This document shows positions 14,224 to 38,652 of a stretch of 64,000 nt of DNA, in pieces. Source of the DNA: an uncultured Pseudomonadota bacterium (GTDB taxonomy: Bacteria > Pseudomonadota > Gammaproteobacteria > CAJXQU01). Position 1 is the first letter of the stretch, and each line of letters starts with the position of its first letter. Both the position numbers and the translations under genes were made by a program. The stretch lies in assembly GCA_913058255.1 (NCBI GenBank), contig CAJXQU010000008.1, positions 32,479 to 96,478 of the forward strand, read 5' to 3'. Under the pieces are notes generated by a model. That model was not told the DNA's origin. It did no database searches and saw only the letters and a program-made list of their open reading frames with translations.

Positions 14224-14399
14224 CTTTAATCTTCCAGCTCACTTTACTTTATTACTTTAATTTTAAAAATCATCATTCGACCTTGCTTGGCGAATCTTTT
14301 CCATGATCATGTCACCTGATAATTTTTGTTGACCAGCTATGGTCACTCTTCTTTTAAAACCTTCCATTGTTTTGAACTGCCTTAACTTTGATCAATCGA

Positions 14400-14780: not shown

Positions 14781-15503
14781 AACCACTAGCAAGAGTAGAA
14801 AAGTCACAACTTATGCAGCCATCAATCCTTACCCAGATATAATCTTTATATACATGATTACTTTCAAATCATCAGCCTTTGATAATTTGAAAAATTCCTT
14901 AGGCCCATTTCCACATACTTTAAATAGGATAACGCTACTATTTTTAAACTTTCAACCGACCATATTCAGATAGAGTAAGCCTATGAAAAATATAGCTATT
15001 AAAGCAACAGACAGCTCGAAATTTGTGGCCGTCAGCTTTATAAAAAAGGCCTGCTCACGAGGCCTAAAATGTAAAGAGTGAGGCACTATTGATACCAACC
15101 TCAAGAATCTCTTCGCTACCGAAGAGAAATTTAATCATAAGTTAGTACATTAGGAGAGCATTACAATTGGCATGCCATGTGATTTAACACAACCAATGAC
15201 AAGATATTAATACACCTGAAAACGACCCTAATTATATGATTTATTAGAGCAATATGAAATCTGTTTATTACTTCGTCCACAAAGCTAAAATAAAATTAAT
15301 ACTTCAAAAGTGTTTAATACTTTCTACACCTGTCGCACAAGTTATCCATATCCATAACAAATATATATCGAGTATTAGATTCAAGTAGCTATATCCCTAA
15401 ATAGAGTTAATTTTATTAAAGACAATCATATAAACCATGCTATATTTAGCGTTAAATGTCTCTGTCATAAATAATTGATCAATGTGGTCAATGGAGTTTT
15501 AAT

Positions 15504-17986: not shown

Positions 17987-18038
17987 ACTGTAGCACTTGA
18001 CACACTTATGTCACCGCAACTGTATCAAGTGCTACAGT
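17987..18038. repeat. Perfect 14-bp inverted repeat (ACTGTAGCACTTGA-N24-TCAAGTGCTACAGT)
   Basis: Read directly from the sequence. It lies between the IS30 relic and the porin-like gene, about 265 nt upstream of its start. Confidence 0.5.
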
Positions 18039-18303
18039 TACTACAATAATCATCACCTTCATCACCCAATTAATGAAAATCACGTTTACTTTTCATTAAT
18101 ATAAATTCAATATATTTCTTATATTTATCATAAGGATACGGGGTATAATGCCAACCAAAATCAAACCAAACCTTACAGCCCCAATCATATCTGTATTTCT
18201 GGCAAAGATATTGCTTAATGCCTTAATACGTTATTAATAACGTGACCTAATTACAACTGTAATGTTGTTTTTTTGATACATAAAACCAAAGGGGTGTATA
18301 GAA

Positions 18304-19569
18304 ATGAAACATAAACTAAATATGATGGCGGCAGCATTACCATTATTGCTGGGTGCAAACATTGCACATGCTGACGTCGATTTATTTGGCGGCAAAGTAA
18401 AGGCAGGCGGCTACCTAGCACAACATTGGCAATCTGCAATTGAAGTTAGTGGCGCTAATAGACAAAATGCAGCCGATGCAAGGCAAAACTCTGGCTTTCA
18501 ACGGTTGCGTGTTGGCTTATGGTTTTCTGCACAAATTAGCGATCGAGTTGGTGCGTTTATAGAAATTGCGGACGAGCCTAATGATTATGGAGCAGGTGAA
18601 CAGTTCAGCTTTGCTATGAATCAGGATCTGGCATGGATCGATTTAAAACTGACGGATAATGATATTCTCCGTGTTGGTAATGTTGTGGAAACAACCATGA
18701 ACTTTCTTCGCTATTCAGATGGCGCGTCCGTTCAAGGCAACCCTAACATTGGTAATGGTTTAGCTGATATGATTACTGCAACACACGGGATCTGGTTAAC
18801 TGGTGCCCATGATGCTTCATTTGGTAAATGGGATTATAACCTAACTCTAACCATCCCTTCTTTCGCCGACGCATTCTATGACGAAAGTGGTTATAACTAT
18901 GGTGCAAGAACTTCGATGACCACCAATAGTGGTTTTGGTATCGGCGCGGGTGTATTCATATTTGATGGCGATGTGGTCGGTTGTGCAACACCAACAACCT
19001 GTAAATTGGGTAACGGTGCAGCACAGCGTTCTTTAATGACTGTAGGTGATGGCGACAACTACCGAGTGGGCCAAAATGGACAAGGTACCCGCGCACAGGT
19101 AGCTGGTATCTTACCTGGGATTGATGGGCATGTTTGGCAGATTGATCTGATGTGGTCTGGTGATGCTGTTGGTGTACCATTAACGGTTCAAGCTTTCTAT
19201 GGTGAAGGTGAAGATGAATATAGCCATAGCACAGGATCTATGGCATCAAATGGTGGTGGTGACTTCAGCACAGTGGATGCGGAGCAAAGTTTCTGGGGAA
19301 TCTTTGGGAAGTATGCTATCAATGATAAGTTCTACGTATCTTCACGCTATCAGGTATCAACTAATGATACAGCTGGTGTCGGCGGTGAGAATGAAGTTGA
19401 TCGTCTTCAACTTACGGGTGGTTTCTGGATAAGTGACTCAACCTTGCTTAAGGCTGAATACGTCAAGCAGAATGAAGATGCTCAATCAGGTGGTGGTATG
19501 TGTAACCCTGCTGGTGCTAGCAGTTGTGACTGGGATGGCTTTGTCATGGAACTTTCTGTTTCGTTCTAA
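18304..19569 (+). CDS. Outer-membrane beta-barrel porin-like protein
   Basis: 421 aa. Signal peptide ...LLGANIAHA/DV, alternating Gly/aromatic-rich strands and a C-terminal aromatic signature ELSVSF. Confidence 0.7.
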   Translation: MKHKLNMMAAALPLLLGANIAHADVDLFGGKVKAGGYLAQHWQSAIEVSGANRQNAADARQNSGFQRLRVGLWFSAQISDRVGAFIEIADEPNDYGAGEQFSFAMNQDLAWIDLKLTDNDILRVGNVVETTMNFLRYSDGASVQGNPNIGNGLADMITATHGIWLTGAHDASFGKWDYNLTLTIPSFADAFYDESGYNYGARTSMTTNSGFGIGAGVFIFDGDVVGCATPTTCKLGNGAAQRSLMTVGDGDNYRVGQNGQGTRAQVAGILPGIDGHVWQIDLMWSGDAVGVPLTVQAFYGEGEDEYSHSTGSMASNGGGDFSTVDAEQSFWGIFGKYAINDKFYVSSRYQVSTNDTAGVGGENEVDRLQLTGGFWISDSTLLKAEYVKQNEDAQSGGGMCNPAGASSCDWDGFVMELSVSF

Positions 19570-20200: not shown

Positions 20201-21219
20201 CATAACACTTTATGCTGCTCTTTTTGTAAATCCAACCCGTGGTATATAGCCGAGTAAACTGTGAGCTCTGACATTGTTGTAATACTCGCGCCATTGGCCG
20301 ATTTCAACCCTAGCTTCTTCCAATGTTCTAAACCAATGTTGATGTCAGACATTCATTTCTAAACTTTCCATTAAGACTTTCAACAAACGCGTTCTGTGTC
20401 GGCTTTCCTGGCTGAATAAACCCAAGTTTTACTTATCGTTCTTTGCTCCAAAAGAACATCGCTTTGCTGGTGTATTCTGCGCCGTTGTCACACGTGATCG
20501 TATGAGGTGATTGTCGTTGTTCACTAATCGGCTCAAGGAGTCGAGCGACTTGCAGTCCTGTGATCGAAACAAAAACTAGTTTCCCCATCATTTCTTTGGT
20601 ATAAACATCGACAATATTCAGCACACGAAAACGCCTGCTGTACTAAGCTGATCGGAGACAAGTCCATCCACCAGCGTTCATTATCAGACGTTGGCAGAGC
20701 CATCGTTTGTCTGGGACGTTGCAAGTTTCTTTCGCTTTTTTGCACGCACTTGAAGCCCTACATCGGTATAAAATCGACAAGCTCGTTTCTTGTTGATGAC
20801 TAAACCTTCAATAATCCGTGTAATATCAAGTAACCGTAATGTGAATAATTAACGACTAGGACTTTCAGGCACGCTCTGAGCACCTGTTCATCTTTACCTT
20901 TCACTTTGTAACGATAATCTCAGCTAACCAACAGGCCATGCGCTCACTTGATATGATAATGTTCTATCAAGTGATGCACGATCGGCTTTACCTTATTTTT
21001 GAAAGCGCATCCTTCATGCCTTCGACTTCCAATAACTTGTCAGGCAACAATCTTTTCAGTTTATTGTTCTCAGGCTCCAATTCACGCAGACGCTTAGCTT
21101 CGTTCGCTTCCAGCCCTGCATATTTACTACGCCCAGTTATAAAAAGTACCTATATAAATACCCTGTTCACGACAGATGTCCTCGACCTTTATCCCTGATT
21201 TATTTTGCTTGATCTTTAA
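20200..21219 (-). mobile_element. IS3-family (IS407/IS2-like) element 'A', degenerate, inserted in X
   Basis: Minus strand shows an OrfA trace GIKVEDICREQGIYIGTFYNWA..AERLRELEPENNKLKRLL. OrfB traces are PTSDNERWWMDL, RFRVLNIVDVYTKEMMGKL...ITCDNGAEYTSKAMFFW, FIQPGKPTQNAFVES.NGKFRNECL and WREYYNNVRAHSLLGY. Multiple stops and frameshifts. The 5' end is cut by element C. Confidence 0.65.
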
Positions 21220-22467
<1,248 letters not shown>

Positions 22468-23464: not shown

Positions 23465-24160
23465 TCACGATTGAAAAGGTAATATTTTCAAACTTATAAT
23501 TACTAAAGATGATGAGTTAGTAATTCCTTTCTCTATAGGGTCGTCTGAAGATCGGTAAAATTTTGATTTAACGATAATCCTTTTATCATCAATTGTTTTG
23601 CTACAAACCTGATCTATATAAACAGGACCAATTGCCTTATGCTTTCCCTGATCTGCTTCTGTTTCGTCTATACATTCCCACTGCGAACTACCATAACGTT
23701 TTTTTATGTTAGCTGACAAAAGATAGGCTTGTCTTTTGCTAAACGGAGAAGCATTTGGATCTGTATAAGCTTGCAGCCCTTGTATCACTCCCTCGTTATC
23801 TATCAAAACAGATAAATTAACTGGGTGTCCAGAAATTTTAGTACCGCTAAAACGTTCCCCTACCTCTGACCACTGATTATCTGAATGGTCATATTTTAAC
23901 CAAACCTGATAGATATTATGAGCATCAATAGAACACTCTAAAAACTCGCTTAGACTCTTAAGTTTCTTAGGAACCTTAGCAGGGCCTCCACAAGTAAAGT
24001 CTTTATAACGTTTTGCTGGCAATTCACTAACATGCATACCCAAGGATATATCACGAAGCTCTTTTGTTCTCTCAACAACAACTGCATCAGTAATATCTTT
24101 AGCGTAACTTCCTATTGAGAATGATAGAAGAACTGAAAGAAGAGGAATAATTAATTTCAT
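23465..24160 (-). CDS. Secreted hypothetical protein (231 aa), last gene of the PQQ-dehydrogenase operon
   Basis: Signal peptide MKLIIPLLSVLLSFSIGSYA/KD and five Cys residues. No motif I recognise. The 13-nt gap to the upstream cytochrome gene suggests co-transcription. Confidence 0.6.
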   Translation of the reverse strand: MKLIIPLLSVLLSFSIGSYAKDITDAVVVERTKELRDISLGMHVSELPAKRYKDFTCGGPAKVPKKLKSLSEFLECSIDAHNIYQVWLKYDHSDNQWSEVGERFSGTKISGHPVNLSVLIDNEGVIQGLQAYTDPNASPFSKRQAYLLSANIKKRYGSSQWECIDETEADQGKHKAIGPVYIDQVCSKTIDDKRIIVKSKFYRSSDDPIEKGITNSSSLVIISLKILPFQS

Positions 24161-24173
24161 TTTACAAGTCTCC

Positions 24174-25001
24174 TCACTCTCTTAAACTGTCACATTGACG
24201 TGATTTTTCGCCCCAATAAGCAGTGCACTGCTCCAAGCTAGGTTCTCCAGATCCTTTAATAACATTCACTACATAGTCAACAACAGCATCTAACTGTCTC
24301 TCACTAAGTAGTTTTCTAGCCCTAGGCGGTTTATCTTCACCAAACTCTTCTCCTGTTGTTTCGTAACAACTTACATCATCACCTTTGTAAACACTTCGTC
24401 CATGGAAAGGCATACCACTTGAAGGTCTACCACAACGAACAACTAGTTTAATTAATTCTGCATTCAAGACAGTTGTTCGCAATGACAAGGCTGCACCACC
24501 ATAACCACCGCCACCATCTCCATGCCATTTATGACATCCGACACAATTCGCTTGTTTATAAACTTTTTTACCTGCTGAGGTGAGTGCAGATTCTGTCTTC
24601 TTTTTTTCAACAATAACTCTAGCAAGAACATCTATCTTAAAAGAGGAGTCAGCACCTGTTACATCAGTAATCACTATAGACTCGTCATTGAAGATAGAAG
24701 GCATCACCTCCATGCCATCCTTTAGATTTTTTGCAATGATCTCATCGCCTTGTTTTAGAGAAAATCTTATTTTACTTTTATCTTCTGATTTCACATCCCA
24801 AACAAGTCTTATAGTTTCTTTGGGGTAAGTTATTGTAAATTTTTCACTACTTAATTGAGTTGATTCATTAACATCAACACTGATGATAAGTTTGTTTTCA
24901 AATTCAGGATTATTATGTGCGTGAAGTAAGGAAGGTATTAGTAACAAGGATATCGTTATTAACCTTATTACTGAAAAAGTATTAACAGTTATCTGTGACA
25001 T
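24174..25001 (-). CDS. Periplasmic c-type cytochrome with about 130-aa N-terminal beta-rich extension
   Basis: 275 aa. Signal peptide, single heme motif CVGCH followed by GDGGGGYGGAALSLR and GRPSSGMPFH, plus additional conserved-looking Cys residues downstream. It occupies the position of the dedicated electron acceptor (XoxG/cytochrome cL-like) after the dehydrogenase. Confidence 0.75.
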   Translation of the reverse strand: MSQITVNTFSVIRLITISLLLIPSLLHAHNNPEFENKLIISVDVNESTQLSSEKFTITYPKETIRLVWDVKSEDKSKIRFSLKQGDEIIAKNLKDGMEVMPSIFNDESIVITDVTGADSSFKIDVLARVIVEKKKTESALTSAGKKVYKQANCVGCHKWHGDGGGGYGGAALSLRTTVLNAELIKLVVRCGRPSSGMPFHGRSVYKGDDVSCYETTGEEFGEDKPPRARKLLSERQLDAVVDYVVNVIKGSGEPSLEQCTAYWGEKSRQCDSLRE

Positions 25002-25206: not shown

Positions 25207-26958
25207 TTATAGAGCAAAAACATATAGCGAAGAACCTGGCTCAAGTTTTTCCAGTCCTTTTGTGCTATCAACAAACCATTTAGGCCAAGCTCCGCCCAAA
25301 CCTACAAGGACAGCAACATATTGCTTGCCATCAACACTAAACGTCATTGGTGGTGCATTCAAACCGCCACCGACATTAAAGGTCCATAGCTCTTGTAATG
25401 TCTTACCATCCAATGCTGCTATAACGCCTTCTGGACGACTTGTAAAGACTAAATCACCACCTGTTGCAAGTGTTCCACCAAGGTTTGGATATTGCATAGC
25501 ATATTTTGCAACAACTTTACCTGTATCTGGATCGACAGCCTTAACACTACCAACAATTGGCTCATGCTGGCTAGGACCACCACCTGTCCACCATTCTCTA
25601 TGTTTATGAGTACCTTCGACCGTATCTTTAGCTGTCATTGTATTACAGCTTTCGATAACAGGGATATACCATAAGTGCAATTCAGGGTTATATGAAGTTG
25701 GTGGCCAGTTTTTACCACCCATATTACCTGGGCAAGAGATCCCTACCTTAGTCGCACGATTAGGTGCTGTGCCTTTTGCATAGAGTTGTACATCCGATTT
25801 AGGATCATAAGCTAAAGGTCGACCTGTTTTTGGATCAAGACCTGGAGTCCAAGTCATTTTATCAACGAAGGCTTCGCCCCAAACAAATTCACCTGTTGCG
25901 CGGTCAAGTGCATATGCATAACCATTTCGATCAGCATGCAACATAACCTTACGCTTTTTACCTTTGTACATGATATCTACAAGCGTATTTTCGTTTACAC
26001 CATCATAGTCGTACGGATCATTTGGAGTGTACTGATGGAACCACTTCAATTTACCAGTATCTGCATTCACAGCGACTGTACTGTTAGTGTAAAGATTGTC
26101 ACCTGGTCGATATTCAGGATCCCAATCAGGTCCAGGATTACCAACGCCCCAAAGGATCAAGTTAGTATCAGGATCATAAGAACCTACAACCCAAGTTGAA
26201 CCACCACCATTCTCCCATGCGTTATGGTCATCTTTCCAAGTTTCATGACCTTTTACACCTGGCTCGGCAATAGTTTTGAATCGCCAAACTTCTTTTTGAG
26301 TAGTCAGATCTGTTGCTGCCAACCAACCTCGAATACCATACTCAGCACCAGAAACACCTGTTATAGCCATATTTTTAACAATCAGTGGTGCTGCTGTAAT
26401 AGTTTCAGACACAGCTGGATCAGCTACTTGTCTTTCCCATACCTTCTCACCAGTTGTTTTGTTAGTAGCTATCAAACGTCCATCAAGAGTATGGGAAATG
26501 ACCTGGTCACCCCATAAAGCAATACCACGGTTATTAACACCGCAACAAGCTGTTGCTCCAGCCCAGTCTTTATCAACTTCTGGATCCATTTTCCACAATA
26601 AATCACCACCAGTCGGTGTAACTTTCAGAGCGTAGACTGCTCCCCAACCATCAGTAACATACATCATTCCATCTTCAACGATTGGAGTACCTTGTAGGCC
26701 ACCATGAGGCCAAATACCACCACCTTCGACGCCACCTAGTTGAAATGTCCAAGCAACATTAAGGTCTTTAACATTTTTCTTATTGATATTAGTCAATGGA
26801 GAAAATCTTTGTCCATCCAATGTTCTGTGATGAGACAACCAGTTTTGCGATTCACTATTTTTAAGCACTCTTTCCATAGTTACTTCAGCAGCTTGGCTTC
26901 CCGCACTTAACACCAATGCTGTAACAACAGTACAAGTTATTCTTTTTACATTAGACAT
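25207..26958 (-). CDS. xoxF: PQQ-dependent alcohol (methanol/ethanol family) dehydrogenase, lanthanide-type (XoxF/PedH-like) signature
   Basis: 583 aa. Signal peptide ...SAGSQA/AE. Vicinal disulfide ACCGVNNRG (Cys138-139). Eight-bladed propeller W-motifs. Active-site stretch NDPYDYDGVNE has Asp two residues after the catalytic Asp (D317-Y-D319, nt 26002-26010), the Ln-coordinating position that is Ala in MxaF. Confidence 0.88.
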   Translation of the reverse strand: MSNVKRITCTVVTALVLSAGSQAAEVTMERVLKNSESQNWLSHHRTLDGQRFSPLTNINKKNVKDLNVAWTFQLGGVEGGGIWPHGGLQGTPIVEDGMMYVTDGWGAVYALKVTPTGGDLLWKMDPEVDKDWAGATACCGVNNRGIALWGDQVISHTLDGRLIATNKTTGEKVWERQVADPAVSETITAAPLIVKNMAITGVSGAEYGIRGWLAATDLTTQKEVWRFKTIAEPGVKGHETWKDDHNAWENGGGSTWVVGSYDPDTNLILWGVGNPGPDWDPEYRPGDNLYTNSTVAVNADTGKLKWFHQYTPNDPYDYDGVNENTLVDIMYKGKKRKVMLHADRNGYAYALDRATGEFVWGEAFVDKMTWTPGLDPKTGRPLAYDPKSDVQLYAKGTAPNRATKVGISCPGNMGGKNWPPTSYNPELHLWYIPVIESCNTMTAKDTVEGTHKHREWWTGGGPSQHEPIVGSVKAVDPDTGKVVAKYAMQYPNLGGTLATGGDLVFTSRPEGVIAALDGKTLQELWTFNVGGGLNAPPMTFSVDGKQYVAVLVGLGGAWPKWFVDSTKGLEKLEPGSSLYVFAL

Positions 26959-27068: not shown

Positions 27069-27086
27069 TGCAATTAATACGCCAAA
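27069..27086 (-). promoter_or_regulatory. Sigma-54 (-24/-12) promoter of the PQQ-dehydrogenase operon
   Basis: The minus strand reads TTTGGCGTATTAATTGCA. This is TGGCGT-A-TTAA-TTGCA with exact GG-N10-GC spacing, about 100 nt upstream of the ATG at 26958. Confidence 0.6.
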
Positions 27087-27273
27087 CATAATTAAGATAC
27101 TTACATACCCTATAACCATTCATTAACCCACCATTCATTAATGCAAACAACCTTTTGTTTTAATAGCTATTAATAGACCGGATACAGCCTCTATATTAAT
27201 GATAAACAAAACACCTAGTTCATTAAACTATGAGTTAAAGGGAATTAAATAATGTATAGATTAAACAAACATG

Positions 27274-27300
27274 TGTCGCATTGATTTATCTTCTGCGACA
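27274..27300. promoter_or_regulatory. Candidate enhancer (UAS) palindrome TGTCGCA-N13-TGCGACA
   Basis: Perfect 7+7 inverted repeat about 200 bp upstream of the -24/-12 element, the typical distance for bEBP binding sites. Confidence 0.4.
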
Positions 27301-27611
27301 AATGAATTAATAGAGTATGTTAATTTACTATTAATCATAAGTTATCGTTATTTTGGGAAACAATAGAACTCGTTATGTAATGGGTAGGTGAGCACCAACA
27401 TTTGCTATTCACACTACCTTTTGCTTAAAGGAAAGGATTGTATGAAAAAACAACATGCATTCTATAAATTTGTATAATTATATAAATTTAAATAGCAGTC
27501 TAGAAATAAAATATTAATGATGATTTTTGAGCATATTATATTCTAAGAATAAGCGTTACATTTACAAAGTAATTATAGATACCAGAGTGAGTGACTTACA
27601 GGTTGTTGCCA

Positions 27612-29375
27612 CTAACAGCAATTACAGTATCTTTGATGCTTAGTTGTTTTTCCAATACCAGGGTTAAAAGTATTTGTAGGATCTAACTTTTGGTAAAAAT
27701 CTTTAAGCTCATTGGCAGCTTCATAAATATGCCCAACATTATGCTCGGCAGGATATTTAGCACCCTTATCATCAAACAGCTCCAACAATTGTTGTTTAAC
27801 TTCTTGCACACTCTCACCTTTTTTAACGAGATAATCCTGATGAAAAACATGACAGAAAAAATGTCCGTAATAAATAGGGCTAAATATCTTTGCCCGCAAG
27901 CTTTCGGGCAACTCTTCAACCCAATTAGTTTCATTCCTTTTTAGAGCAACATCTAGCGCCAGTATATCTTCAACTTTATCTTCATGCATTTGGTAATAAC
28001 GGATCGCTGCGCCAGCAACAGCAAAACGGTGCAACATAGCTTTTTCTTCTTCTTCTTTAGTACAGACAATATAGTGTCCAGAATTATTTTGGATGTCCTC
28101 GTTTGCATAAAACTTAGTTAAATACTGTGTTAATTCTTCGATACCATCATCACTCATTTTTATGATTAAGTGGTGAGCATACAATTTTTCCATCTCTAAT
28201 ATTCGTTGAGGCAAATGCTCTGGGAAAAGCGAACTAAGCCATTGCATGACTTTATCTGGAAAATCTTTAGGCATAAATGGCAGACGATTAAGTAATGTAT
28301 TTAAACGACCCCTAATCGCAAATAACTGCGGCATTCTGCGTGTACCCATAATGTTAATCGCTAAAAAAGTATCTTTACCATAAACTCGGGCTAAATTAAA
28401 AGCATCCCGATGAATGTACTCGCCTAAAACGGGCAAGTTTTTAAAGTTCTTAAGAACATGTCGTCTTATTTGGTTTAATTGGTTGGAGTCTTTTGTCCCT
28501 ATATAAAAAGTTTTACTTTTTTCAACACTTTTGAAAGTATCCAATCTAACAGCAAATACCGCCAACTTCCCTGCACAACCACTGCTCTCGAATAAACGCC
28601 TCGGATCTGCATTAAAACGTGCAGGAGAATCAGCATCAACATCTTTAACTCGTTTTTTATATTCAATGTCAGAAGCCATTGCATTATCATTCCAAACAAC
28701 ATCTGATAATGAAAAATTCTCATCCTGTAAATTGCTTAATATCTCTTCAGGCGTGTCTCCTAAAGAAATCCCCAAGTGATTAATTAGCTCTAAGTGGCCA
28801 TGTTCATTAACTTGAGCATATAAAGCTAACTCAGTATATGCAGGACCACGTTGAATAAGTGCACCCCCTGAATTATTAGCAACCCCTCCTATAACCGAGG
28901 CACCAATACACGACGAACCGATGACAGAATGAGGCTCACGTTGTAATGGTTTTAAAGCATTCTCGATTTGATATAACGTTGTGCCTGGAAAACTAATAAG
29001 TTGACGACCTTTCTTTTTTTCCTCAATTGTTTCTGTTTCCGCACCCAGTAATATCATCTGATCCATTTTACGAGTATTGATAACTATGACAGGTCGCTCA
29101 TAATCATAACCACTAGGGGTGGATCCTTCCGTTAGCCCTGTGTTAGCGGCTTGCATGATAATGATCGTTCGAGCTTCAACACAAACTTGTAATACACGCC
29201 AAAATTTCAGCAAATCATCAGGAAAAACAACCGCCGCAGCATCACCCTCTCCAGATCTAAACCCTGTTCTATAATGCTTTGTTTGTTCTAATGAAATAAG
29301 GATATTCCTTTTTCCAACAATATCCTCGAGAGTTAAAATAAATCCTGTATTTTCCATTTTTAAATTTTCAACCAA
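27612..29375 (-). CDS. dld: Quinone-dependent D-lactate dehydrogenase (FAD, membrane-associated)
   Basis: 587 aa. Collinear with E. coli Dld: YRTGFRSGEGDAAAVVFP, MQAANTGLTEGSTP, REPHSVIGSSCIGASVIGGVANNSGGALIQRGPAYTE. Confidence 0.9.
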   Translation of the reverse strand: MVENLKMENTGFILTLEDIVGKRNILISLEQTKHYRTGFRSGEGDAAAVVFPDDLLKFWRVLQVCVEARTIIIMQAANTGLTEGSTPSGYDYERPVIVINTRKMDQMILLGAETETIEEKKKGRQLISFPGTTLYQIENALKPLQREPHSVIGSSCIGASVIGGVANNSGGALIQRGPAYTELALYAQVNEHGHLELINHLGISLGDTPEEILSNLQDENFSLSDVVWNDNAMASDIEYKKRVKDVDADSPARFNADPRRLFESSGCAGKLAVFAVRLDTFKSVEKSKTFYIGTKDSNQLNQIRRHVLKNFKNLPVLGEYIHRDAFNLARVYGKDTFLAINIMGTRRMPQLFAIRGRLNTLLNRLPFMPKDFPDKVMQWLSSLFPEHLPQRILEMEKLYAHHLIIKMSDDGIEELTQYLTKFYANEDIQNNSGHYIVCTKEEEEKAMLHRFAVAGAAIRYYQMHEDKVEDILALDVALKRNETNWVEELPESLRAKIFSPIYYGHFFCHVFHQDYLVKKGESVQEVKQQLLELFDDKGAKYPAEHNVGHIYEAANELKDFYQKLDPTNTFNPGIGKTTKHQRYCNCC

Positions 29376-29866
29376 TTATTTTCTATAAAACAACTCATGA
29401 ACATTATATTCGCATAAAATACAAAACATGCATACAGATCATTCATAAACACATTGATTTTTTATAGTTAAAGCTAACCTGCCACGCTTTACCATGATTT
29501 TTAAAAAAACCTTACAAAACCATTACGATAAAATTTATAGATTTTTAAACACACTATTTGCATAAACTCAAAAGTTAACAATATGATTTTCATGGAGACT
29601 TTATTAAAACGGCTTATCATGTGAGCGCTAACAATTCATTGAAATCATTAAATTGGCGAATTCTCATTTATGCGACATTTTCATGAAACATTTGCACCTA
29701 TAACGACACAGAAATTAAAGCTACAAATTATTTATATTTTTACCAATAGCTAAACATTTCTAGATCTAAATACAATATTAATAATAACAAGCTCAACAAG
29801 TTATTTACTTAAGTAAATGTAATTAAACATTAATATATTTGTATCTCAAATAACGTTCTGAATTCC

Positions 29867-29883
29867 TTGGCATATTATTTGCT
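29867..29883 (+). promoter_or_regulatory. Sigma-54 (-24/-12) promoter of the aldehyde dehydrogenase / SoxYZ-like operon
   Basis: TTGGCATATTATTTGCT is TGGCAT-A-TTAT-TTGCT with exact GG-N10-GC spacing, about 80 nt upstream of the ATG at 29962 (RBS AGGAG at about 29947). It is nearly identical to the element at 27069-27086. Confidence 0.65.
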
Positions 29884-29961: not shown

Positions 29962-31470
29962 ATGAATGCAAACCTAAAAGAATCTATAAGCGAAAATGCT
30001 GTTACACAGTTTCTTGGTCAAGAAACTGTACCTATGTTTATCGGAGGCCAATTCGTATCCCCTGAAGGATGTAAGACGATCGATGTGGTTAACCCTTCAA
30101 ATGCAGAAAAACTTACTCAAATCTTCGCCGGAAATGCAACACAAGTCGATCAAGCATGCAAAGCAGCAGATAAGGCTTTTAAAACTTCTAACTGGGCGAC
30201 AATGCCCGTAGAACAAAGATCTGCTCTGCTCATGAAACTTGCCGATCTAATTGAGGAGAATGCAGAAACACTTGGGGCACTAGAATCTCTCGATGTAGGA
30301 AAACCTTTAGCTGGCGCTATTGAAGGGGAAATTCCTTTCTCAGCAGGTGCGTTTCGTTATTTTGCACAAGTAGCTCTTGATTACGATAAGTATAGTGATC
30401 CTTTGGATGTTGATGGCATGGATTCACATTATGTTCGTGTTCCCTACGGTGTATGTGGGTTTATCTTTCCATGGAACTTTCCATTTTTATTATTAGCGTG
30501 GGGTACTTCCGCTGCGTTAGCTGCTGGAAATACCGTCGTGGTGAAACCAGCCGAACTAACCTCTTTAAGTACTTTATATCTTTGTAAGCTGGTTAAAGAA
30601 GCAGGTATCCCTGACGGTGTATTTAACGTGGTCACTGGATATGGCGTTGACAGCGGTATGCCTATTGCTGAACATCCATTGGTTCGAAAAATGGCTTTCA
30701 CTGGCTCCCCAGAAGTTGGGCGTATGATTGCTGAGACCTGTGGTCGAAACTTACTCCCTCTTAAATTAGAATTAGGTGGTAAAGGCGCTGCGGTCATTTT
30801 TGATGATGTCGATGTTAAAGAAACAGCTAAAAGTCTTGCAGAAATAATTACATCAAATACAGGTCAAGTTTGTTGTACTGCTAGTCGGTGGCTAGTTCAT
30901 GAAAACATTTATGAAGAGTTCTCGTCCGAAGTGAGCAAAGCTCTGGGTAAAACAGTAATCGGCAACAGTCATGGCGATAGTACTCAGATGGGGCCTGTTG
31001 TAAGTGAAGTTCAACGTCAACGTATCTTAGGTTATCAACAGAAAGGGCTGGACCAAAATGCCGAACTAGTTGTAGAAGGAAAAGCTCTTTCTCCAGAAGG
31101 TTCTGAAGATGGATTTTATCTAACTCCATCACTACTCAAAGGTGATTCTGATAATATCTGCTTCAAGGAAGAAATTTTTGGTCCATCCGCATTCCTCGTA
31201 TCATTTAATGATGAAGATTCTGCGATAGATATAGTGAACAGCTCTAGCTACGGTTTAGCCAATAGCGTATGGACTAAGGATTTAGATCGTGCGAAAAGAG
31301 TTGCTGAGAAAATGGTTGTAGGTAATGCTTGGATAAATGCCCACAATGTTTTTGCATACGGCTTGCCTTATGGTGGTGTTAACCTCAGCGGAATGGGTGG
31401 AGGAGTGAATAGTCTTGAGACTTTTGAAGATTACCTCCGTGGGCAAACAGTCGCACGCCCTTTAACTTAA
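29962..31470 (+). CDS. NAD(P)+-dependent aldehyde dehydrogenase
   Basis: 502 aa. ALDH motifs FPWNFP, ELGGKG and catalytic Cys in GQVCCTASR. Similar in size and layout to AcoD/ExaC-type acetaldehyde dehydrogenases. Confidence 0.9.
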   Translation: MNANLKESISENAVTQFLGQETVPMFIGGQFVSPEGCKTIDVVNPSNAEKLTQIFAGNATQVDQACKAADKAFKTSNWATMPVEQRSALLMKLADLIEENAETLGALESLDVGKPLAGAIEGEIPFSAGAFRYFAQVALDYDKYSDPLDVDGMDSHYVRVPYGVCGFIFPWNFPFLLLAWGTSAALAAGNTVVVKPAELTSLSTLYLCKLVKEAGIPDGVFNVVTGYGVDSGMPIAEHPLVRKMAFTGSPEVGRMIAETCGRNLLPLKLELGGKGAAVIFDDVDVKETAKSLAEIITSNTGQVCCTASRWLVHENIYEEFSSEVSKALGKTVIGNSHGDSTQMGPVVSEVQRQRILGYQQKGLDQNAELVVEGKALSPEGSEDGFYLTPSLLKGDSDNICFKEEIFGPSAFLVSFNDEDSAIDIVNSSSYGLANSVWTKDLDRAKRVAEKMVVGNAWINAHNVFAYGLPYGGVNLSGMGGGVNSLETFEDYLRGQTVARPLT

Positions 31471-31497
31471 GATCATTACTGACATTTCGTAACGTGT

Positions 31498-31530
31498 ATT
31501 GCGGCTACTGTTTATTAAAGTAGCCGCAAT
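31498..31530 (+). terminator. Hairpin after the aldehyde dehydrogenase gene (12-bp perfect stem, no clear T-tract)
   Basis: ATTGCGGCTACT-gtttattaa-AGTAGCCGCAAT. A second short hairpin, GTAGAG-tagctag-CTCTAC, follows. It may attenuate rather than terminate. Confidence 0.45.
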
Positions 31531-31656
31531 ATAAGTAGAGTAGCTAGCTCTACTACTAAGTTAAAATTTACTCCTAATGGTTCGACTCAGCATAAAGCTC
31601 TTAATTCATTTCCAATTATTTTGGACATCTTCTTACTTAACTTATAGAGTGTATAA

Positions 31657-32526
31657 ATGAACTATTTAAAATTATTTCTCACATTTTACTTCTCAGTATT
31701 CACTCTAGTCTGCCATGGTGAAATTGCTTCAGATACTTCACAACAGAGTCCTTTGGAAGAGAACTCTTTAGAAGATTATTGGGAGAATAATATAAAGAAT
31801 ATTTATTTTTCTGGAAAAGATATTATTGTTGATTCAAATCAGGACATAATAAAGTTAGAAGCTCCATATAGAGCAGAAGATCCTGCCATAGTACCAATTT
31901 CAATCCAAACCATGGTAGCCACCAATGAAAGTTTTGACATCATTAAAATTCATGTTTTTATTGACAAAAACCCTTCTCCATTAGTCGGTGTTTTTAAATT
32001 TTCAGAACTCAAAAGTAAAGCAGACCTTTCAATGAGAGTTAGGGTGAATGAGTTTACCTATATTCGTGCTATCGCAGAAACAAGTGATGGGAAGTTCTAT
32101 ATGACGAAGAAATTTGTAAAGGCAAGTGGAGGTTGTTCCGCCCCTCCCCCTCCTTCTGCCGCCAATGCTAAGTTATTAGGTAAAATGCGGACTAGAATTA
32201 TGGGAAGACTTGCATTGTCAAAACCAAATTTAGTTCAATTCAAAATCAAACATCCAAACTATTCAGGTTTAGAAATGGTCGCCCCAGGAAGTGAAAAAAC
32301 AAAACAAAATTTCATAAAGAATATAAAAGTTAGCCTAAACGATAAAACTGTCTTAGATGCAGATTTGACATTCTCTATAAGCACAGACCCAAGTTTTAGA
32401 TTTTATATAACTCCTGAAAAAGAAGGAACTCTAGAAATTGAGGCTACGGACACAGCTAACAATATCTTCACTCATAGCCATGTTGTTGATCATAATAATG
32501 TTTCTATAGCCATTCCATTAAATTAA
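31657..32526 (+). CDS. Periplasmic SoxY/SoxZ-fusion-like thiol carrier (quinoprotein-dehydrogenase-associated type)
   Basis: 289 aa. Signal peptide. The N-terminal half ends in KASGGCSAPPPP (Cys160, nt 32134-32136), resembling the SoxY GGC swinging-arm motif but placed internally. It is followed by a Pro linker and a SoxZ-like beta-sandwich half. Paralog of 61565-62374. Confidence 0.65.
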   Translation: MNYLKLFLTFYFSVFTLVCHGEIASDTSQQSPLEENSLEDYWENNIKNIYFSGKDIIVDSNQDIIKLEAPYRAEDPAIVPISIQTMVATNESFDIIKIHVFIDKNPSPLVGVFKFSELKSKADLSMRVRVNEFTYIRAIAETSDGKFYMTKKFVKASGGCSAPPPPSAANAKLLGKMRTRIMGRLALSKPNLVQFKIKHPNYSGLEMVAPGSEKTKQNFIKNIKVSLNDKTVLDADLTFSISTDPSFRFYITPEKEGTLEIEATDTANNIFTHSHVVDHNNVSIAIPLN

Positions 32527-33367
32527 GTTCTTACCTTGAACTTTGATTACGTTATTTACGCGTATTTGCTTAAAAATACCGTAACCTACTATTGTGTAGC
32601 GGAATGTCAGTAAAGATTCAATATCCTTCTAGTACTAGTAAGGTATTGTACCTATAATAGTTCGACCCCTACCCTCATACTGCATGAATATTGCGACAAT
32701 TGTTTACTAGCAACTGTCTAATACACACACATTGTCTTAAAACCTTTAGTTTCACCTCAACGCATACTGATATATTTTTATTAAATACATATATTTTTCA
32801 AAAGCTTAGTCAATTTACCCTTTCTTGGTAAGTAACTTTAACAAACTTGTCATATTCATATTCTCTGGCAAAAACATTACTAACCATGTTAGTTTCTAGT
32901 TATATTAACTACTAAAAGGCTATAAAGTATGCCCTTGAACCATAATAATACTCTGATTTGATGTTGCATAAATTAGCTATTATCGACTTATCTGCTAATA
33001 TCTAACCTTAATATACTTGGATCTACACTAGCTCTCGGCGATAGAAAAATAGAAAGTTCAGTCATAGCTCAACATTTTCGGTATTAGCAAAAACAACATG
33101 CATATCTTATATTACATTAGAGAAAAGGATTATAAGCTACCTATTTTAGTTATTAGTTTAGGTAAAAGTAACTTCTACTTAACTCTGAAAACAATAACTT
33201 TATTGTCCAACAGAGTTACTATAAAAAAACTAATCAACACTCTTACCTTTTCACATTTAGGTATGACAAAACAATTTTCTTAATCGTTTGATAAAATAAT
33301 TATCAATAATTTAGATATACAATGAAGTAAACAAACATATATCCAATAAATATACTGTTTTAATAAA

Positions 33368-35305
33368 ATGACATATACGACAAAAAAAAATCTACATGTT
33401 GATAAAATCCATAGTACGGTTTCATGCATGGTTGATGCATCAAACATAGAGTCCATGGTTGAGCGTTCATGGCACCGATGCATTGACGACTATGGACTTT
33501 CACCATCTAGTACCCCCTTACCTCATGTACTTGAAAAAATTGAACTCCGTGAATGTGAAGAACATTTTTCTAAGGCAAGAGAAATCTCTCAAAACAGTGT
33601 AAATAAGCTTTATGAGTTTATCGCAGATATAGGCTACACCATATTACTCACTGATAATAATGGCATAACACTCGACTGCCGTTATAACCTTGATCACGAA
33701 AACACATTAAAAAAACTTGGCCTATATCACGGCACAAATTGGTCTGAAAATATCTCAGGAACAAATGGTATCGGAACTTGTTTGGTTGAAAAATCTCCTG
33801 TTTTAATTCGTACTGGAGAACATTTCTTTCATGAGATGTTCAATGCTACATGTACAGTTTCCCCAATTTTTGACAGTAAAGGAAAAATAATGGCGGCTCT
33901 TAATGCCACAACCCTTCTGCCAGAAACAGCCAATCAAAATAAACTTATTTCACGTCTTGTTGAACAACATGCGATGCAAATCGAAATTTTGAATTTCATC
34001 CAAGATTTCAGCGATCATTGGATATTAAAATTTTCTACCGGTAATGATCTTACGAATATTATAAAAACAGGTATTCTGGCTGTTAATCAAGATGGCGTTA
34101 TCGTGGCCGGCAATAGAAACTCCTACAACCTTCTCTATAAAAAGAACAGAGCCGACTTAAATAATAAGTATGTCCATGATATATTTAAATCGAACTTTTC
34201 AGCAATGATTGATAACCACAATAAAAACATACCACTAAGGCATCAACTTACTACATTAGAGCACCAAGATACCTTTTTCTTTGAGCTTAGAGCACCTTCT
34301 CTTTCTCAAAAAAATAGCTCCTCACCTTCAAAGCAAAAAAGCAATTCAAAAGTAAAACAACCTCATTGTAAAGAACACCCGCATTTATCTGATTTAGCTG
34401 GAAATGATATTCACATGCAAATCATAGGAGAGAAGATAAAGAAAGTTATTAACTTAGATTTAAATATTTTACTTATTGGTGAGACAGGATCTGGCAAAGA
34501 AGCACTCGCTAAAGCAATACATCATGCAAGTGAGCGGCAAGATCAACCCTTCATTGCTATTAATTGTGCAGCAATACCTGAATCATTAATAGAAAGTGAA
34601 TTGTTTGGTTATTCTAGCGGTACTTTTACAGGTGGTCTCAAAAATGGTATGAAGGGCAAGGTTCTTCAAGCTAATGGTGGAACCCTATTTTTGGATGAAA
34701 TTGGCGATATGCCATTACACCTACAAACACGTCTCTTACGTGTACTCTCTGAAATGGAAGTCATCCCACTTGGTGAAACAACGCCAACTTATTTAGATAT
34801 ACAGCTTATTTCAGCAACCAACAAAAGTATCACCGAAATGGTTAAAAATAATACTTTCCGTAAAGATCTATACTATCGACTTAACGGTATCACCTTAGAG
34901 ATACCATCATTAAGAAATCGAACAGACAAACGAGAGTTAATTGTAAATATATTTAATGAATATTCATCATTAAAATCGACCTTATTATCGGAAAGCTCGC
35001 TAGACATATTAGAACATTATCAATGGCCTGGAAATATTAGACAATTAATTAACGTTGCAAAGTACTCTGCTGCAATGTGCACATCAGGTGAAATACAAGA
35101 TGAGCATCTTCCTAAAGAAATACGCTCTAACAAATCAAAAAATATTAAAGAAAACTTACAACATTCAGAGTATGAAATTCTTATAAACTGTCTGAAAATC
35201 AATAAGTGGAATATTACAAAAGTATCCAAACAACTGGGGATCTGCAGAGCGACTGTGTATAGAAAAATTAATAAATATAAAATAATTTTTCCAAATGATG
35301 AATAG
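33368..35305 (+). CDS. acoR: Sigma-54-dependent transcriptional activator, AcoR-like (GAF-type sensor plus AAA+ plus Fis HTH)
   Basis: 645 aa. N-terminal ERSWHRCIDDYGLSP as in AcoR. Walker A GETGSGKE, sigma-54 contact loop ESELFGYSSGTFTGG (GAFTGA variant), DEIGDMP and C-terminal HTH ITKVSKQLGICRATVYRKINKY. The true start is probably an internal Met (aa 21 or 30). Confidence 0.88.
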   Translation: MTYTTKKNLHVDKIHSTVSCMVDASNIESMVERSWHRCIDDYGLSPSSTPLPHVLEKIELRECEEHFSKAREISQNSVNKLYEFIADIGYTILLTDNNGITLDCRYNLDHENTLKKLGLYHGTNWSENISGTNGIGTCLVEKSPVLIRTGEHFFHEMFNATCTVSPIFDSKGKIMAALNATTLLPETANQNKLISRLVEQHAMQIEILNFIQDFSDHWILKFSTGNDLTNIIKTGILAVNQDGVIVAGNRNSYNLLYKKNRADLNNKYVHDIFKSNFSAMIDNHNKNIPLRHQLTTLEHQDTFFFELRAPSLSQKNSSSPSKQKSNSKVKQPHCKEHPHLSDLAGNDIHMQIIGEKIKKVINLDLNILLIGETGSGKEALAKAIHHASERQDQPFIAINCAAIPESLIESELFGYSSGTFTGGLKNGMKGKVLQANGGTLFLDEIGDMPLHLQTRLLRVLSEMEVIPLGETTPTYLDIQLISATNKSITEMVKNNTFRKDLYYRLNGITLEIPSLRNRTDKRELIVNIFNEYSSLKSTLLSESSLDILEHYQWPGNIRQLINVAKYSAAMCTSGEIQDEHLPKEIRSNKSKNIKENLQHSEYEILINCLKINKWNITKVSKQLGICRATVYRKINKYKIIFPNDE

Positions 35306-36513: not shown

Positions 36514-37941
36514 ATGAAAATTCGCATCTGGCATAAACTCGCGCTTGTTTTACTGTTAACCACCACTTTAGTCATATCGATCGCTTTTGTTCTTGCACAG
36601 TTGAGCTTTCGACAGGACTTTAGTGGCTATATAAAAGGGCAACAAGAAAGACAAGTACAACTTCTGAGCGAACGGCTGGTCGAAAATTACGAACAAGCAG
36701 GCAGCTGGAGTTTTTTACGTAAAAATCCACGCCTGTTTCGATTAATCATTCGAGAATCATTTAGAAATGAACAGGCTACTTTTACAGCACCCCCAGTAAG
36801 ACATGAAAAACCTGTTCCTCCTTTTGATCCACCACCGCGGTTTCGACCACGCCATGCTTCACGGATGGCGATATTAGATCAAGATAAAAACAATGTATTA
36901 GGCTCTTTAGAATCTGGCCCATCAATTGAAGACTTTCCTATCAAATCTATGAGTAAAACGATTGGCTATATACGGATACGCTCCATTTCGAACTTAACCA
37001 ATAAACTCGATGAACGTTTTATAAAAAGTCAATTTCATTCATATCTAGGAATTGGTGTTATTGCCTTTTTCTTATCACTAATCGCAGCCTGGCTACTTTC
37101 AAACTACTTCCGTCGACGTTTTGTTGAATTAACTAAGATTGCAAATGATCTAACGGCCGGCCAGTTTGAACAAAGAATTAATATAACGCATAACGATGAA
37201 CTAGCAGACTTGGGGCGTAACTTTAATGTGCTTGCCGATACGCTTGAGAAAAATCGTTATTCTCAGAAACAATGGATTGCCGATATTTCACATGAGCTTC
37301 GTACTCCTTTGGCTATCCTATGTGGTGAAATTGAAGCATTACAAGATGGTATTCGTCCTCTTGATAAAGCCGCAATTAAATCACTCTCAGGTGAAGCATC
37401 CCATTTGAACTATCTTGTCAATGATCTCTACCAACTCTCTCTATCAGATTTAGGCAAGTTAGGTTATAAAAAATCTGTTATCGATCTAACTGAAATTCTA
37501 GATCGTGTGATTGCTCAGTATCATTCCAGGCTATTAGAGCATGATTTAAACCTTGAGAATCGGATAGAACAATTTAAACCCATATCTATTTTCGGTGATG
37601 AACAACGCTTTATGCAATTGTTTTCTAACTTGATAGACAATGCGATTAAATATACCAATCAAGGTGGCTTAATTATTATCGATTTAGAACAAACAGATCA
37701 CAATATTCTTCTCACTTTTGAAGACTCTACCCCAGGCCTCTCCACTGAAAACTTATCCAAGATGTTTAATCGTCTCTATCGAGCAGAACCATCTCGCAAT
37801 CGAAACACTGGAGGTGCTGGACTTGGCCTAGCTATAGCATCTGCCATTATCGAGGCTCACGGTGGAAAGATTAGCGCCTCAGACTCGATGCTAGGAGGTA
37901 TCAAGCTTTCTATACAACTGCCTCTCTATACTCATCCCTAA
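36514..37941 (+). CDS. Sensor histidine kinase (BaeS/CpxA-like; TM-periplasmic-TM-HAMP-HisKA-HATPase)
   Basis: 475 aa. Two TM segments, H-box ISHELRTPLA, N-box DNAIKYT and G-box GGAGLGLAI. Confidence 0.88.
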   Translation: MKIRIWHKLALVLLLTTTLVISIAFVLAQLSFRQDFSGYIKGQQERQVQLLSERLVENYEQAGSWSFLRKNPRLFRLIIRESFRNEQATFTAPPVRHEKPVPPFDPPPRFRPRHASRMAILDQDKNNVLGSLESGPSIEDFPIKSMSKTIGYIRIRSISNLTNKLDERFIKSQFHSYLGIGVIAFFLSLIAAWLLSNYFRRRFVELTKIANDLTAGQFEQRINITHNDELADLGRNFNVLADTLEKNRYSQKQWIADISHELRTPLAILCGEIEALQDGIRPLDKAAIKSLSGEASHLNYLVNDLYQLSLSDLGKLGYKKSVIDLTEILDRVIAQYHSRLLEHDLNLENRIEQFKPISIFGDEQRFMQLFSNLIDNAIKYTNQGGLIIIDLEQTDHNILLTFEDSTPGLSTENLSKMFNRLYRAEPSRNRNTGGAGLGLAIASAIIEAHGGKISASDSMLGGIKLSIQLPLYTHP

Positions 37942-37959
37942 CAACGAGAAGAGGACATA

Positions 37960-38652
37960 ATGACAACTAAACAACACGCTCTCATCATTGAAGATGAACC
38001 AAAAATAGCGCATATTTTGATCGACTATTTACAAGCTAATCATTATAAAACGACATGGCTTAATAATGGTTTGGACGTTATAAAATGGTTAGACGAAAAC
38101 TCAACAGATATTATCTTGCTAGATCTCATGCTGCCGGGTAAGGATGGCATAGAAATCTGCCAAGAAGTACGAGAGTTTTCCCAAGTTCCTATCATGATGA
38201 TAACCGCAAGGGTTGAAGAAATTGATCGCATTCTTGGTATGGAAATTGGTGCTGATGATTATATGTGTAAACCATTCAGCCCACGAGAAGTCATCACGCG
38301 TGTAAAAGCACTACTTCGCCGAGCGAATTTTTCCGCACAAACATCCTCACTTCAATCAAAATTAAGCTTAAATACTGAAAAGTTTGAGGCAAAGTTTCAT
38401 GATCAACTGCTCGAACTAACTCCCGTAGAATTTCGCCTGCTCGATGTTCTATCAGCAAAGCCCGGCTTTGTCTTTTCTCGTCAAAGGTTGATGGATCATG
38501 TCTATGATGACCACCGTGTGGTCAGTGATCGAACCATGGATACACATATAAAAAATCTTCGCAAAAAACTCCAGAGTGTCAGAGGAGATGCAGAAATGAT
38601 ACGTTCAATATATGGCATCGGTTATAAATTTGATGACAGCAACTTAATCTAA
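37960..38652 (+). CDS. OmpR-family response regulator (BaeR/CpxR-like)
   Basis: 230 aa. Receiver domain (DEP...LLDLMLPGKDG...KPF) and winged-helix output (LTPVEFRLL...IYGIGYKF). Confidence 0.9.
   Translation: MTTKQHALIIEDEPKIAHILIDYLQANHYKTTWLNNGLDVIKWLDENSTDIILLDLMLPGKDGIEICQEVREFSQVPIMMITARVEEIDRILGMEIGADDYMCKPFSPREVITRVKALLRRANFSAQTSSLQSKLSLNTEKFEAKFHDQLLELTPVEFRLLDVLSAKPGFVFSRQRLMDHVYDDHRVVSDRTMDTHIKNLRKKLQSVRGDAEMIRSIYGIGYKFDDSNLI

Follow-up and report, generated by a model that had tools for sequence, protein, structure and literature searches.

Predicted sigma-54 control of a lanthanide-type PQQ alcohol dehydrogenase, an aldehyde dehydrogenase, and a porin in an uncultured gammaproteobacterium

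AcoR, MimR, EatR, and AcxR are sigma-54 activators of the AcoR (COG3284) type, and control the catabolism of small alcohols, ketones, and aldehydes. The subject of this study is a 64,000-nucleotide stretch of DNA (referred to as the window) from an uncultured gammaproteobacterium of the CAJXQU01 lineage (assembly GCA_913058255.1; contig CAJXQU010000008.1, positions 32,479 to 96,478), in which a gene for an enhancer-binding protein (EBP) of similar architecture is found near genes for an alcohol dehydrogenase (ADH) that depends on pyrroloquinoline quinone (PQQ), an aldehyde dehydrogenase (ALDH), and a porin. We consider it likely that the window contains three sigma-54 promoters, each with a TGTCGCA-type enhancer approximately 200 bp upstream, and that all three are driven by the adjacent EBP, which would sense a small molecule. 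The locus shares with described AcoR-type systems a GAF(-PAS)/AAA+/HTH_8 regulator and catabolic operon neighbors with -24/-12 promoters and an upstream enhancer, and homologues of the regulator are named "transcriptional regulator of acetoin/glycerol metabolism" in their source. On the other hand, genes for acetoin (acoABC), acetone, or ethanolamine are absent from its surroundings, the predicted targets comprise a periplasmic PQQ-ADH together with an ALDH and a porin, and identity to generic AcoR-like proteins does not exceed ~40%.

Other described systems combine some of these elements. The exaA gene of Azospirillum brasilense, which encodes a PQQ-ADH, is sigma-54-dependent and works with a LuxR-type regulator (Singh et al. 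2017, as cited in PMC6115532). The feature in common with the window, where the promoter is predicted, is a quinoprotein alcohol dehydrogenase expressed from a sigma-54-dependent promoter; in A. brasilense, the place of a classical AAA+ EBP is taken by EraR, a response regulator of the LuxR type. Mfla_0343 of Methylobacillus flagellatus is a lanthanide-induced, sigma-54-dependent regulator adjoining xoxF, with a predicted sigma-54 promoter, and sigma-54 regulators were new to the lanthanome according to its authors (PMC9988556). There too, the promoter is a prediction only, and a sigma-54-dependent regulator is found beside a PQQ dehydrogenase, which in that case is lanthanide-dependent; the difference lies in the enzyme, the methanol dehydrogenase XoxF, and in the setting of methylotrophy and the lanthanide switch. 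The ped system of Pseudomonas putida (PedE/PedH, PedI, and PedF) is similar in its periplasmic lanthanide-type PQQ-ADH, cytochrome c, ALDH, and link to glycolate oxidation; the ethylene glycol route of this bacterium runs through GlcDEF. It differs in being under LuxR-type and two-component control (PedR1/AgmR and PedS2/PedR2), and a review of ped attached sigma-54 only to CbrB, with no mention of RpoN or an enhancer. The regulation of lanthanide-type PQQ dehydrogenases described so far is almost all of the two-component or LuxR type, and the present locus offers a testable one-component sigma-54 alternative, with a defined enhancer motif and three predicted target promoters.

A preliminary description of the window regarded sigma-54/AcoR-type control of such an enzyme as unusual wiring, a view that is weakened by the published precedents and by a background sample of 80 unrelated AcoR-like or generic EBP loci in GTDB genomes. 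These were obtained by a profile search with an EBP alignment, which used generic AAA+ peptides (IESELFGY and LFLDEIGD) and returned only distant EBPs (at most 39% identity) and no orthologues. A PQQ-ADH was present within 10 kb in 8 of the 80 loci (L005, L007, L008, L011, L021, L023, L026, and L035; EBPs 29-39% identical), the taxa being Azoarcus, Ectothiorhodospiraceae, Pollutimonas, Janthinobacterium, Pseudoduganella, Paraburkholderia, and Stutzerimonas stutzeri. In seven of the eight, the ADH or an ALDH-ADH pair had a match to a sigma-54 position weight matrix (PWM) within ~250 nt on its upstream side; the match in L011 was 2 kb upstream. The locus is a well-delineated case of the known class of sigma-54/EBP catabolic regulons: the mechanism is unsurprising, the design is textbook, and the gain is incremental. 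Its interest is in the lanthanide-type PQQ link, in a regulon apparently conserved despite non-orthologous enzyme replacement, and in its testability.

The two -24/-12 elements reported previously were found at the positions given for them, TTTGGCGTATTAATTGCA on the minus strand (27086->27069) and TTGGCATATTATTTGCT on the plus strand (29867-29883), both with exact GG-N10-GC spacing by direct reading of the sequence. The element of the PQQ-ADH operon (27069-27085, minus strand) is TTGGCGTATTAATTGCA, with GG at 27083/27082 and GC at 27071/27070, and the GC of the element of the ALDH gene (29867-29883, plus strand) is at 29881/29882. Both agree with the consensus TGGCAC-N5-TTGCW, reading TGGCGT-N5-TTGCA (PQQ-ADH) and TGGCAT-N5-TTGCT (ALDH). 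The predicted transcription start sites are ~27058, 100 nt upstream of the ATG at 26958 (PQQ-ADH), and ~29894, 68 nt upstream of the ATG at 29962 (ALDH); good ribosome-binding sites, as previously noted, precede these start codons (AGGGGG and AAGGAG, respectively). When the PWM was scored at every position of the window (intergenic portion, 14,164 bases), the ALDH site (16.0 bits) ranked third overall and first in intergenic DNA, and the PQQ-ADH site (12.9 bits) ranked tenth and fourth, respectively. Both sites are among the best intergenic matches of the window. The string TGGC-N7-TTGC occurred 10 times in the window (1.75 expected; 0 of 100 shuffles reached 10); however, this count alone proves little because 6 of the 10 matches are inside coding sequence.

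The sites were compared with those of ten related loci (L001-L004, L085-L088, L091, and L092), in which the EBP is present or on the same contig; the ADH served to find L090, L091, and L092, of which L090 is a further part of the contig of L004. Aligned across the window and three loci with an ADH 83-84% identical, the DNA upstream of the PQQ-ADH gene (mean identity, 58%) has an invariant TGG..TATTAATTGC and, ~215-240 bp further upstream, an equally invariant TGTCGCA...GCGACA block. In the ALDH upstream regions (five loci; mean identity, 57%), TGGCA.A....TTGC is invariant and three blocks of half-sites (ATGCGAC / TGTAACA / GCGACAC type) are kept. The -24/-12 block and the block of the upstream activating sequence (UAS) are the only long invariant stretches in these 57-58%-identical alignments, and the fixed positions are those contacted by sigma-54, while the bases between them vary. 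We take this conservation as decisive evidence that the predicted elements exceed chance. Both motifs are very likely to be real sigma-54 promoters, as they had been read in the preliminary description, with cores invariant in four (PQQ-ADH) and five (ALDH) loci. The single best PWM match in each of L001, L003, L004, L086, and L087 is just upstream of an ADH operon, ALDH, porin, or pyruvate dehydrogenase (PDH) E1 gene, and the two best matches in L085 are upstream of an operon for a Rieske-type protein and a PQQ-ADH. A weaker match precedes lctP in L004. In L090 and L092, a match lies before glcD, which diverges from the ADH; no site reaching the PWM threshold was found upstream of glcD in L091.

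A third predicted sigma-54 target in the window, missed by the preliminary description, is the porin promoter CTGGCAAAGATATTGCT (18199-18215, plus strand), 89 nt upstream of the porin ATG; its score of 15.0 bits ranks second in intergenic DNA and fourth in the whole window. In the porin upstream regions of five loci, TGGCAA-N5-TTGCT is invariant, and TGTAACAnTTG and TGTCGCA blocks are kept. The gene (18304-19569, plus strand) encodes an outer-membrane porin-like protein of 421 amino acids that has a signal peptide, ends in Phe, and is a predicted channel for substrate entry. Its identity to the products of the genes immediately before the EBP in L003 and L001 is 65 and 56%, respectively, and Pfam Porin_4 was found in the orthologue from L086.

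Each of the three promoters has a predicted UAS. That of the PQQ-ADH promoter is an inverted repeat, TGTCGCA-N13-TGCGACA (27274-27300; ~-242 to -216), conserved in four loci; that of the ALDH promoter reads ATGCGACA ... TGAAACA ... CGACAC (29670-29709; ~-224 to -185), and that of the porin promoter TGTAGCA ... TGTCACCGCAACTGTA ... TGCTACA (17989-18036). An unbiased 7-mer enrichment analysis at positions -260 to -170 of 17 predicted promoters (1077 tests) gave CAACTGT (7 of 17; p = 7e-10), TGTCGCA (7 of 17; p = 2e-9), and TGTAACA (6 of 17; p = 1e-8). The degenerate pattern TGT[ACT][AG]CA matched 26 times at these positions (1.3 expected), against 0-3 times per neighboring 90-nt bin, and 21 times (1.05 expected) when the window's own promoters were left out. 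This fixed geometry upstream of non-homologous genes looks like the layout expected of a bacterial EBP enhancer.

The EBP gene (33368-35305, plus strand) encodes a GAF domain (residues 72-190; 31.4 bits, cut-off 22.4), a weak PAS domain (235-285), an AAA+ domain (PF00158; 213 bits, cut-off 20.2), and a C-terminal Fis-type helix-turn-helix (HTH_8, PF02954; 36.4 bits, cut-off 22), and is the predicted activator of the three promoters. The AAA+ domain has Walker A (GETGSGKE) and Walker B (DE) motifs and the loop variant GTFTGG (GAFTGA-like); the precomputed Pfam name of the N-terminus is MimR_N. A tblastn search with the AAA+ domain agreed with the earlier statement that this is the only EBP in the window. 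The designation "AcoR-like" is appropriate to the GAF-type architecture only, there being no acoABC(L) neighbors. AcoR in the strict sense was rejected (no aco genes in the window or the ten related loci), as was DhaR (NF008485), for which the full-length match of 297.6 bits is below the cut-off of 551 and no dha genes are present.

Orthologues of the EBP form a clade with 49-64% identity, after which the next matches fall to ~40%; the closest named relative is a Methylophaga metagenome-assembled genome. The neighbors that recur in the ten related loci are the ALDH, a porin of 410-421 amino acids, a cytochrome c or Rieske-type protein, SoxYZ, and genes for 2-hydroxy acids (lctP, lutABC, and/or glcDEF), together with a PQQ-ADH in all but L001/L002 (none within 10 kb there), in a gene order and with enzyme subfamilies that vary. 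A single activator is supported because the EBP orthologues adjoin PQQ-ADH, ALDH, porin, and 2-hydroxy-acid genes, and the adjacent EBP is the best candidate on this synteny. The previous reading of the locus as one regulon is partly supported: EBP orthologues keep synteny with this gene set although its order differs between loci, but the gene membership was overstated (SoxYZ). By the same comparison, uncultured Gammaproteobacteria of marine or lake origin share the predicted regulon. In the SoxYZ-EBP spacer, an enhancer-like pair, TGCGACA ... CAACTGT (32689-32716, plus strand), is followed ~175 nt downstream by a weak -24/-12-like string, CTGGCAAAAACATTACT (32865-32881, plus strand; 8.8 bits, AC for GC), the best sigma-54 candidate there; from this string to the start codon of the EBP the distance is ~490 nt. 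The pair and the string may represent autoregulation of the EBP gene.

The PQQ-ADH (25207-26958, minus strand) belongs to the methanol/ethanol dehydrogenase family (TIGR03075; 548 bits, cut-off 480) and has vicinal Cys138-Cys139. An additional Asp two residues past the catalytic Asp (D-x-D) marks lanthanide enzymes. The assignment to the lanthanide type in the preliminary description was correct with regard to the D-Y-D signature: NDPYDYDGVNE aligns to WDFDG in the best PDB matches, 6zcv/6zcw, the aligned residues of ExaA (1flg), a Ca-type enzyme, are WDFSG, and by this alignment the window enzyme carries the lanthanide-type signature. Entries 6zcv/6zcw are titled only "quinoprotein ethanol dehydrogenase", and we take them to be PedH of P. 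putida. Assignment to XoxF was rejected (365 bits to 6zcv/6zcw vs 296 to 6dam and 275 to 6oc5). The second gene of the operon (24174-25001, minus strand) encodes a c-type cytochrome (Pfam Cytochrom_C / CBB3) that is 60% identical to the cytochrome following the ADH in L090 and is the probable electron acceptor of the ADH. The third (23465-24160, minus strand) encodes a conserved protein of 231 amino acids with no Pfam or NCBIfam match; it is 46% identical to a 217-amino-acid protein at the same place in L004, and this place is likewise occupied in L088, L090, and L092.

The ADHs of the related loci fall into two subfamilies that are 40% identical, both with D-x-D. Directly upstream of the second subfamily (D-W-D, lanthanide-type), which shares 40% identity with the ADH of the window, cytochrome c is replaced by a Rieske-type protein (213-221 amino acids; L003, 5630-6295; L085, 2724-3380; L087, 5890-6531), which may be an undescribed electron acceptor of PQQ-ADH. 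These loci have predicted tandem sigma-54 promoters (L003, 6290-6730, minus strand; L087, 6525-6910, minus strand; L085, 2285-2730, plus strand), of which the window showed no counterpart. From the distal promoter (13.7-17.9 bits), a stretch of ~95-110 nt leads to a conserved GC hairpin with a T-run, behind which come the enhancer and, after it, the proximal promoter, which serves an operon of Rieske-type protein, PQQ-ADH, AldA, and lutABC. The distal promoter looks like the source of a short sigma-54-dependent RNA or leader.

The ALDH (29962-31470, plus strand; 502 amino acids, NAD(P)-dependent; Pfam Aldedh, 483 bits) is 75% identical to the ALDH of L091 and reached no NCBIfam equivalog cut-off. 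Two adjacent strong hairpins without a U-tract follow its stop codon (31495-31554, plus strand; -33.5 kcal/mol, z = -4.65, 0 of 200 shuffles folding as well), a possible transcript end or processing site. The next gene (31657-32526, plus strand) encodes a quinoprotein-dehydrogenase-associated SoxYZ-like carrier (TIGR04557; 226.9 bits, cut-off 140). An operon of ALDH and SoxYZ, as described earlier, is doubtful because the hairpins are in the 186-nt gap, no sigma-54 site precedes SoxYZ, and in relatives the ADH operon closes with SoxYZ; SoxYZ is probably outside the ALDH operon.

Between the two promoters lies the gene for a D-lactate dehydrogenase, Dld (27612-29357, minus strand, ATG at 29357; NF008387, 899 bits, cut-off 391), which the preliminary description treated as a bystander. 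This did not stand: the closest relatives have glcDEF in this place, with a sigma-54-type site before glcD in L090 and L092. The oxidation of 2-hydroxy acids belongs to the module because glcDEF takes the place of dld and lutABC/lctP are found in the same neighborhood, while dld of the window is probably transcribed independently. GlcE and GlcF pass their equivalog cut-offs, and the ALDH of the Rieske-type loci passes that of NF007497 (773 vs 500), which has the library name "aldehyde dehydrogenase" only and which we take to be E. coli AldA, a lactaldehyde/glycolaldehyde dehydrogenase. By gene order, the window is a rearranged version of the L090-L092 layout, in which glcDEF is between the ALDH and ADH. 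Fragments of IS3- and IS110-type transposases (20900-22200 and 41497-41922) probably explain the altered order, i.e., the porin away from the EBP, dld in place of glcDEF, and SoxYZ behind the ALDH.

In the mechanism that we propose, the EBP would bind clusters of two to three TGTCGCA/TGTAACA-type half-sites ~190-240 bp upstream of each -24/-12 element, its N-terminal GAF(-PAS) region would sense an effector (candidates being a short alcohol or diol, its aldehyde, or a 2-hydroxy acid), and the AAA+ ring would reach the sigma-54 holoenzyme by DNA looping and use ATP to open the promoter. The units switched on would be the operon of PQQ-ADH, cytochrome c, and the 231-amino-acid protein, the ALDH, and the outer-membrane porin. 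The motifs, their conservation and fixed spacing, the synteny with the EBP, and the family assignments were observed; we infer EBP-UAS binding, a requirement for rpoN, and the nature of the effector and substrate. A periplasmic alcohol would be oxidized to an aldehyde, then to a 2-hydroxy acid (lactate/glycolate), and finally to pyruvate/glyoxylate, together with the enzymes of the Dld/LutABC/GlcDEF type that are always found with the system. Given accompanying enzymes that are specific for lactaldehyde/glycolaldehyde, lactate, and glycolate, a C2-C3 alcohol or vicinal diol (e.g., 1,2-propanediol or ethylene glycol) is the most plausible substrate. Periplasmic alcohol oxidation tied to lactate/glycolate oxidation and a specific porin narrows the substrate candidates, and the EBP and its promoter may be useful as a biosensor or tightly regulated expression switch.

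Several points weigh against this interpretation. Support for the regulon is derived from sequence; a metagenome scaffold is all that is known of the organism, and the window does not contain rpoN. The PWM is our own approximation of the published consensus, the PQQ-ADH site ranks only tenth by it in the window, and at position -23 the orthologues of this site have T and not C. By PWM, no useful site was found upstream of SoxYZ, the EBP gene has no proper sigma-54 site (best, 8.8 bits), and dld has no upstream match of 3 bits or more, and thus no sigma-54 site. The degenerate UAS pattern was set after the data had been seen, which the 7-mer test and the test excluding the window offset only in part, and the IHF consensus (WATCAR-N4-TTR) is absent from all three UAS-promoter spacers. 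The diol reading is drawn from enzyme co-occurrence only.

Three other explanations were weighed against control of the three promoters by the adjacent EBP. That the -24/-12-like strings arose by chance, or are conserved for another reason (e.g., as the operator of a sigma-70 regulator), with sigma-70 promoters being used, is very improbable. Such strings in coding sequence (6 of the 10 TGGC-N7-TTGC matches) in some cases score like the reported sites, and sigma-70-like hexamers are everywhere in this AT-rich region; however, the conserved positions are exactly the GG, the TTGC, and their spacing, with variable bases between, a sigma-70 scan showed no excess (38 sites vs 39.5 expected), and the strings are not palindromic. 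The element also recurs before non-homologous genes (ADH, ALDH, porin, lctP, glcD, and PDH) in related loci. If the promoters are real, another activator might drive them in trans, with the TGTCGCA block binding that protein or an accessory regulator and the neighboring EBP controlling something else. EBPs do act in trans, and there are often many per genome, but the window has no further EBP; an OmpR-type two-component system is encoded just downstream (36514-38652), but is not conserved in related loci. Published regulation of PQQ-ADH is of the LuxR and two-component types, and the LuxR-type protein of A. brasilense works with sigma-54, whereas the UAS geometry is typical of a bacterial EBP. 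Since the EBP clade is syntenic with the targets in all ten related loci despite shuffled order and replaced subfamilies, we regard a different activator as improbable.

The remaining alternative is compatible with the regulatory claim: the genes may form a lactate/2-hydroxy-acid regulon with lactate as the effector, to which the PQQ-ADH and ALDH are accessory. lctP and/or lutABC are present in nine of the ten related loci, with glcDEF in their stead in L001/L002, which have the EBP, porin, glcDEF, and ALDH and no PQQ-ADH within 10 kb; moreover, the strongest site of L004 precedes PDH E1. On the other hand, a single promoter pair precedes ADH, AldA, and lutABC in L085-L087, where these genes are arranged head-to-tail, the window has a degraded lutABC but intact promoters for the ADH and ALDH, and the use of lactate needs no porin, ADH, or ALDH; this alternative therefore appears unlikely, and we favor an alcohol or diol pathway under the adjacent EBP. 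A broader proposal is more tentative, and we put it forward as a possibility with considerable doubt: the EBP clade may represent an undescribed lanthanide-linked vicinal-diol pathway (for 1,2-propanediol or ethylene glycol), forming one sigma-54 regulon with a dedicated porin. After periplasmic oxidation by a lanthanide-type PQQ-ADH, it would run through lactaldehyde or glycolaldehyde to lactate or glycolate and on to pyruvate or glyoxylate. In this proposal, the ADH, its electron acceptor, the ALDH, and the hydroxy-acid oxidase were swapped non-orthologously across lineages (e.g., Rieske-type for cytochrome c) while promoters, enhancer, and activator stayed, and one lineage has a short sigma-54 RNA. 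Searching the literature for a pathway of the PQQ / propanediol / lactaldehyde kind returned nothing relevant, and a search on MimR likewise yielded nothing of use.

Some further features of the window and related loci were observed. The strongest sigma-54 site of L004 (12191-12207, plus strand; 18.1 bits) is directly after the EBP gene and 36 nt upstream of PDH E1; no comparable site was found at the PDH operon of the window (9105-11771, minus strand). An Rfam scan of the window gave one tRNA only, and a terminator consensus scan was uninformative (7 terminator-like sites vs 5.2 expected). Sigma-54-like strings of 14.3-16.4 bits are located inside coding sequence at 44202-44218, 51757-51773, and 61269-61285 (all minus strand), and the first two are within a long minus-strand gene array (42-58 kb), which is taken to be nuo from a Proton_antipo_M domain in two products. 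Such coding strings account for most of the TGGC-N7-TTGC excess, and are probably due to chance or codon-driven. Remnants of lutABC (13684-14749, minus strand) consist of lutC and a lutA fragment of ~75 of 253 residues, lutB being missing; a gene of the SGL family beside them is 74% identical to the SGL gene adjoining the EBP in L085. The spacer between the lutA remnant and a conserved gene for a 358-amino-acid protein with no assigned function (15504-16580) contains a palindromic TTGGCATGCCAA core (15162-15183), which is sigma-54-like on both strands (~10.7 bits). A lone glcD-like gene for a FAD oxidase (1803-3724, plus strand) is 61% identical to GlcD of L090, just under the equivalog cut-off; the next gene encodes a DUF6231 protein, and glcE and glcF do not follow. 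A second SoxYZ-like paralogue (61565-62374, minus strand) is 37% identical to the SoxYZ-like protein of L090.

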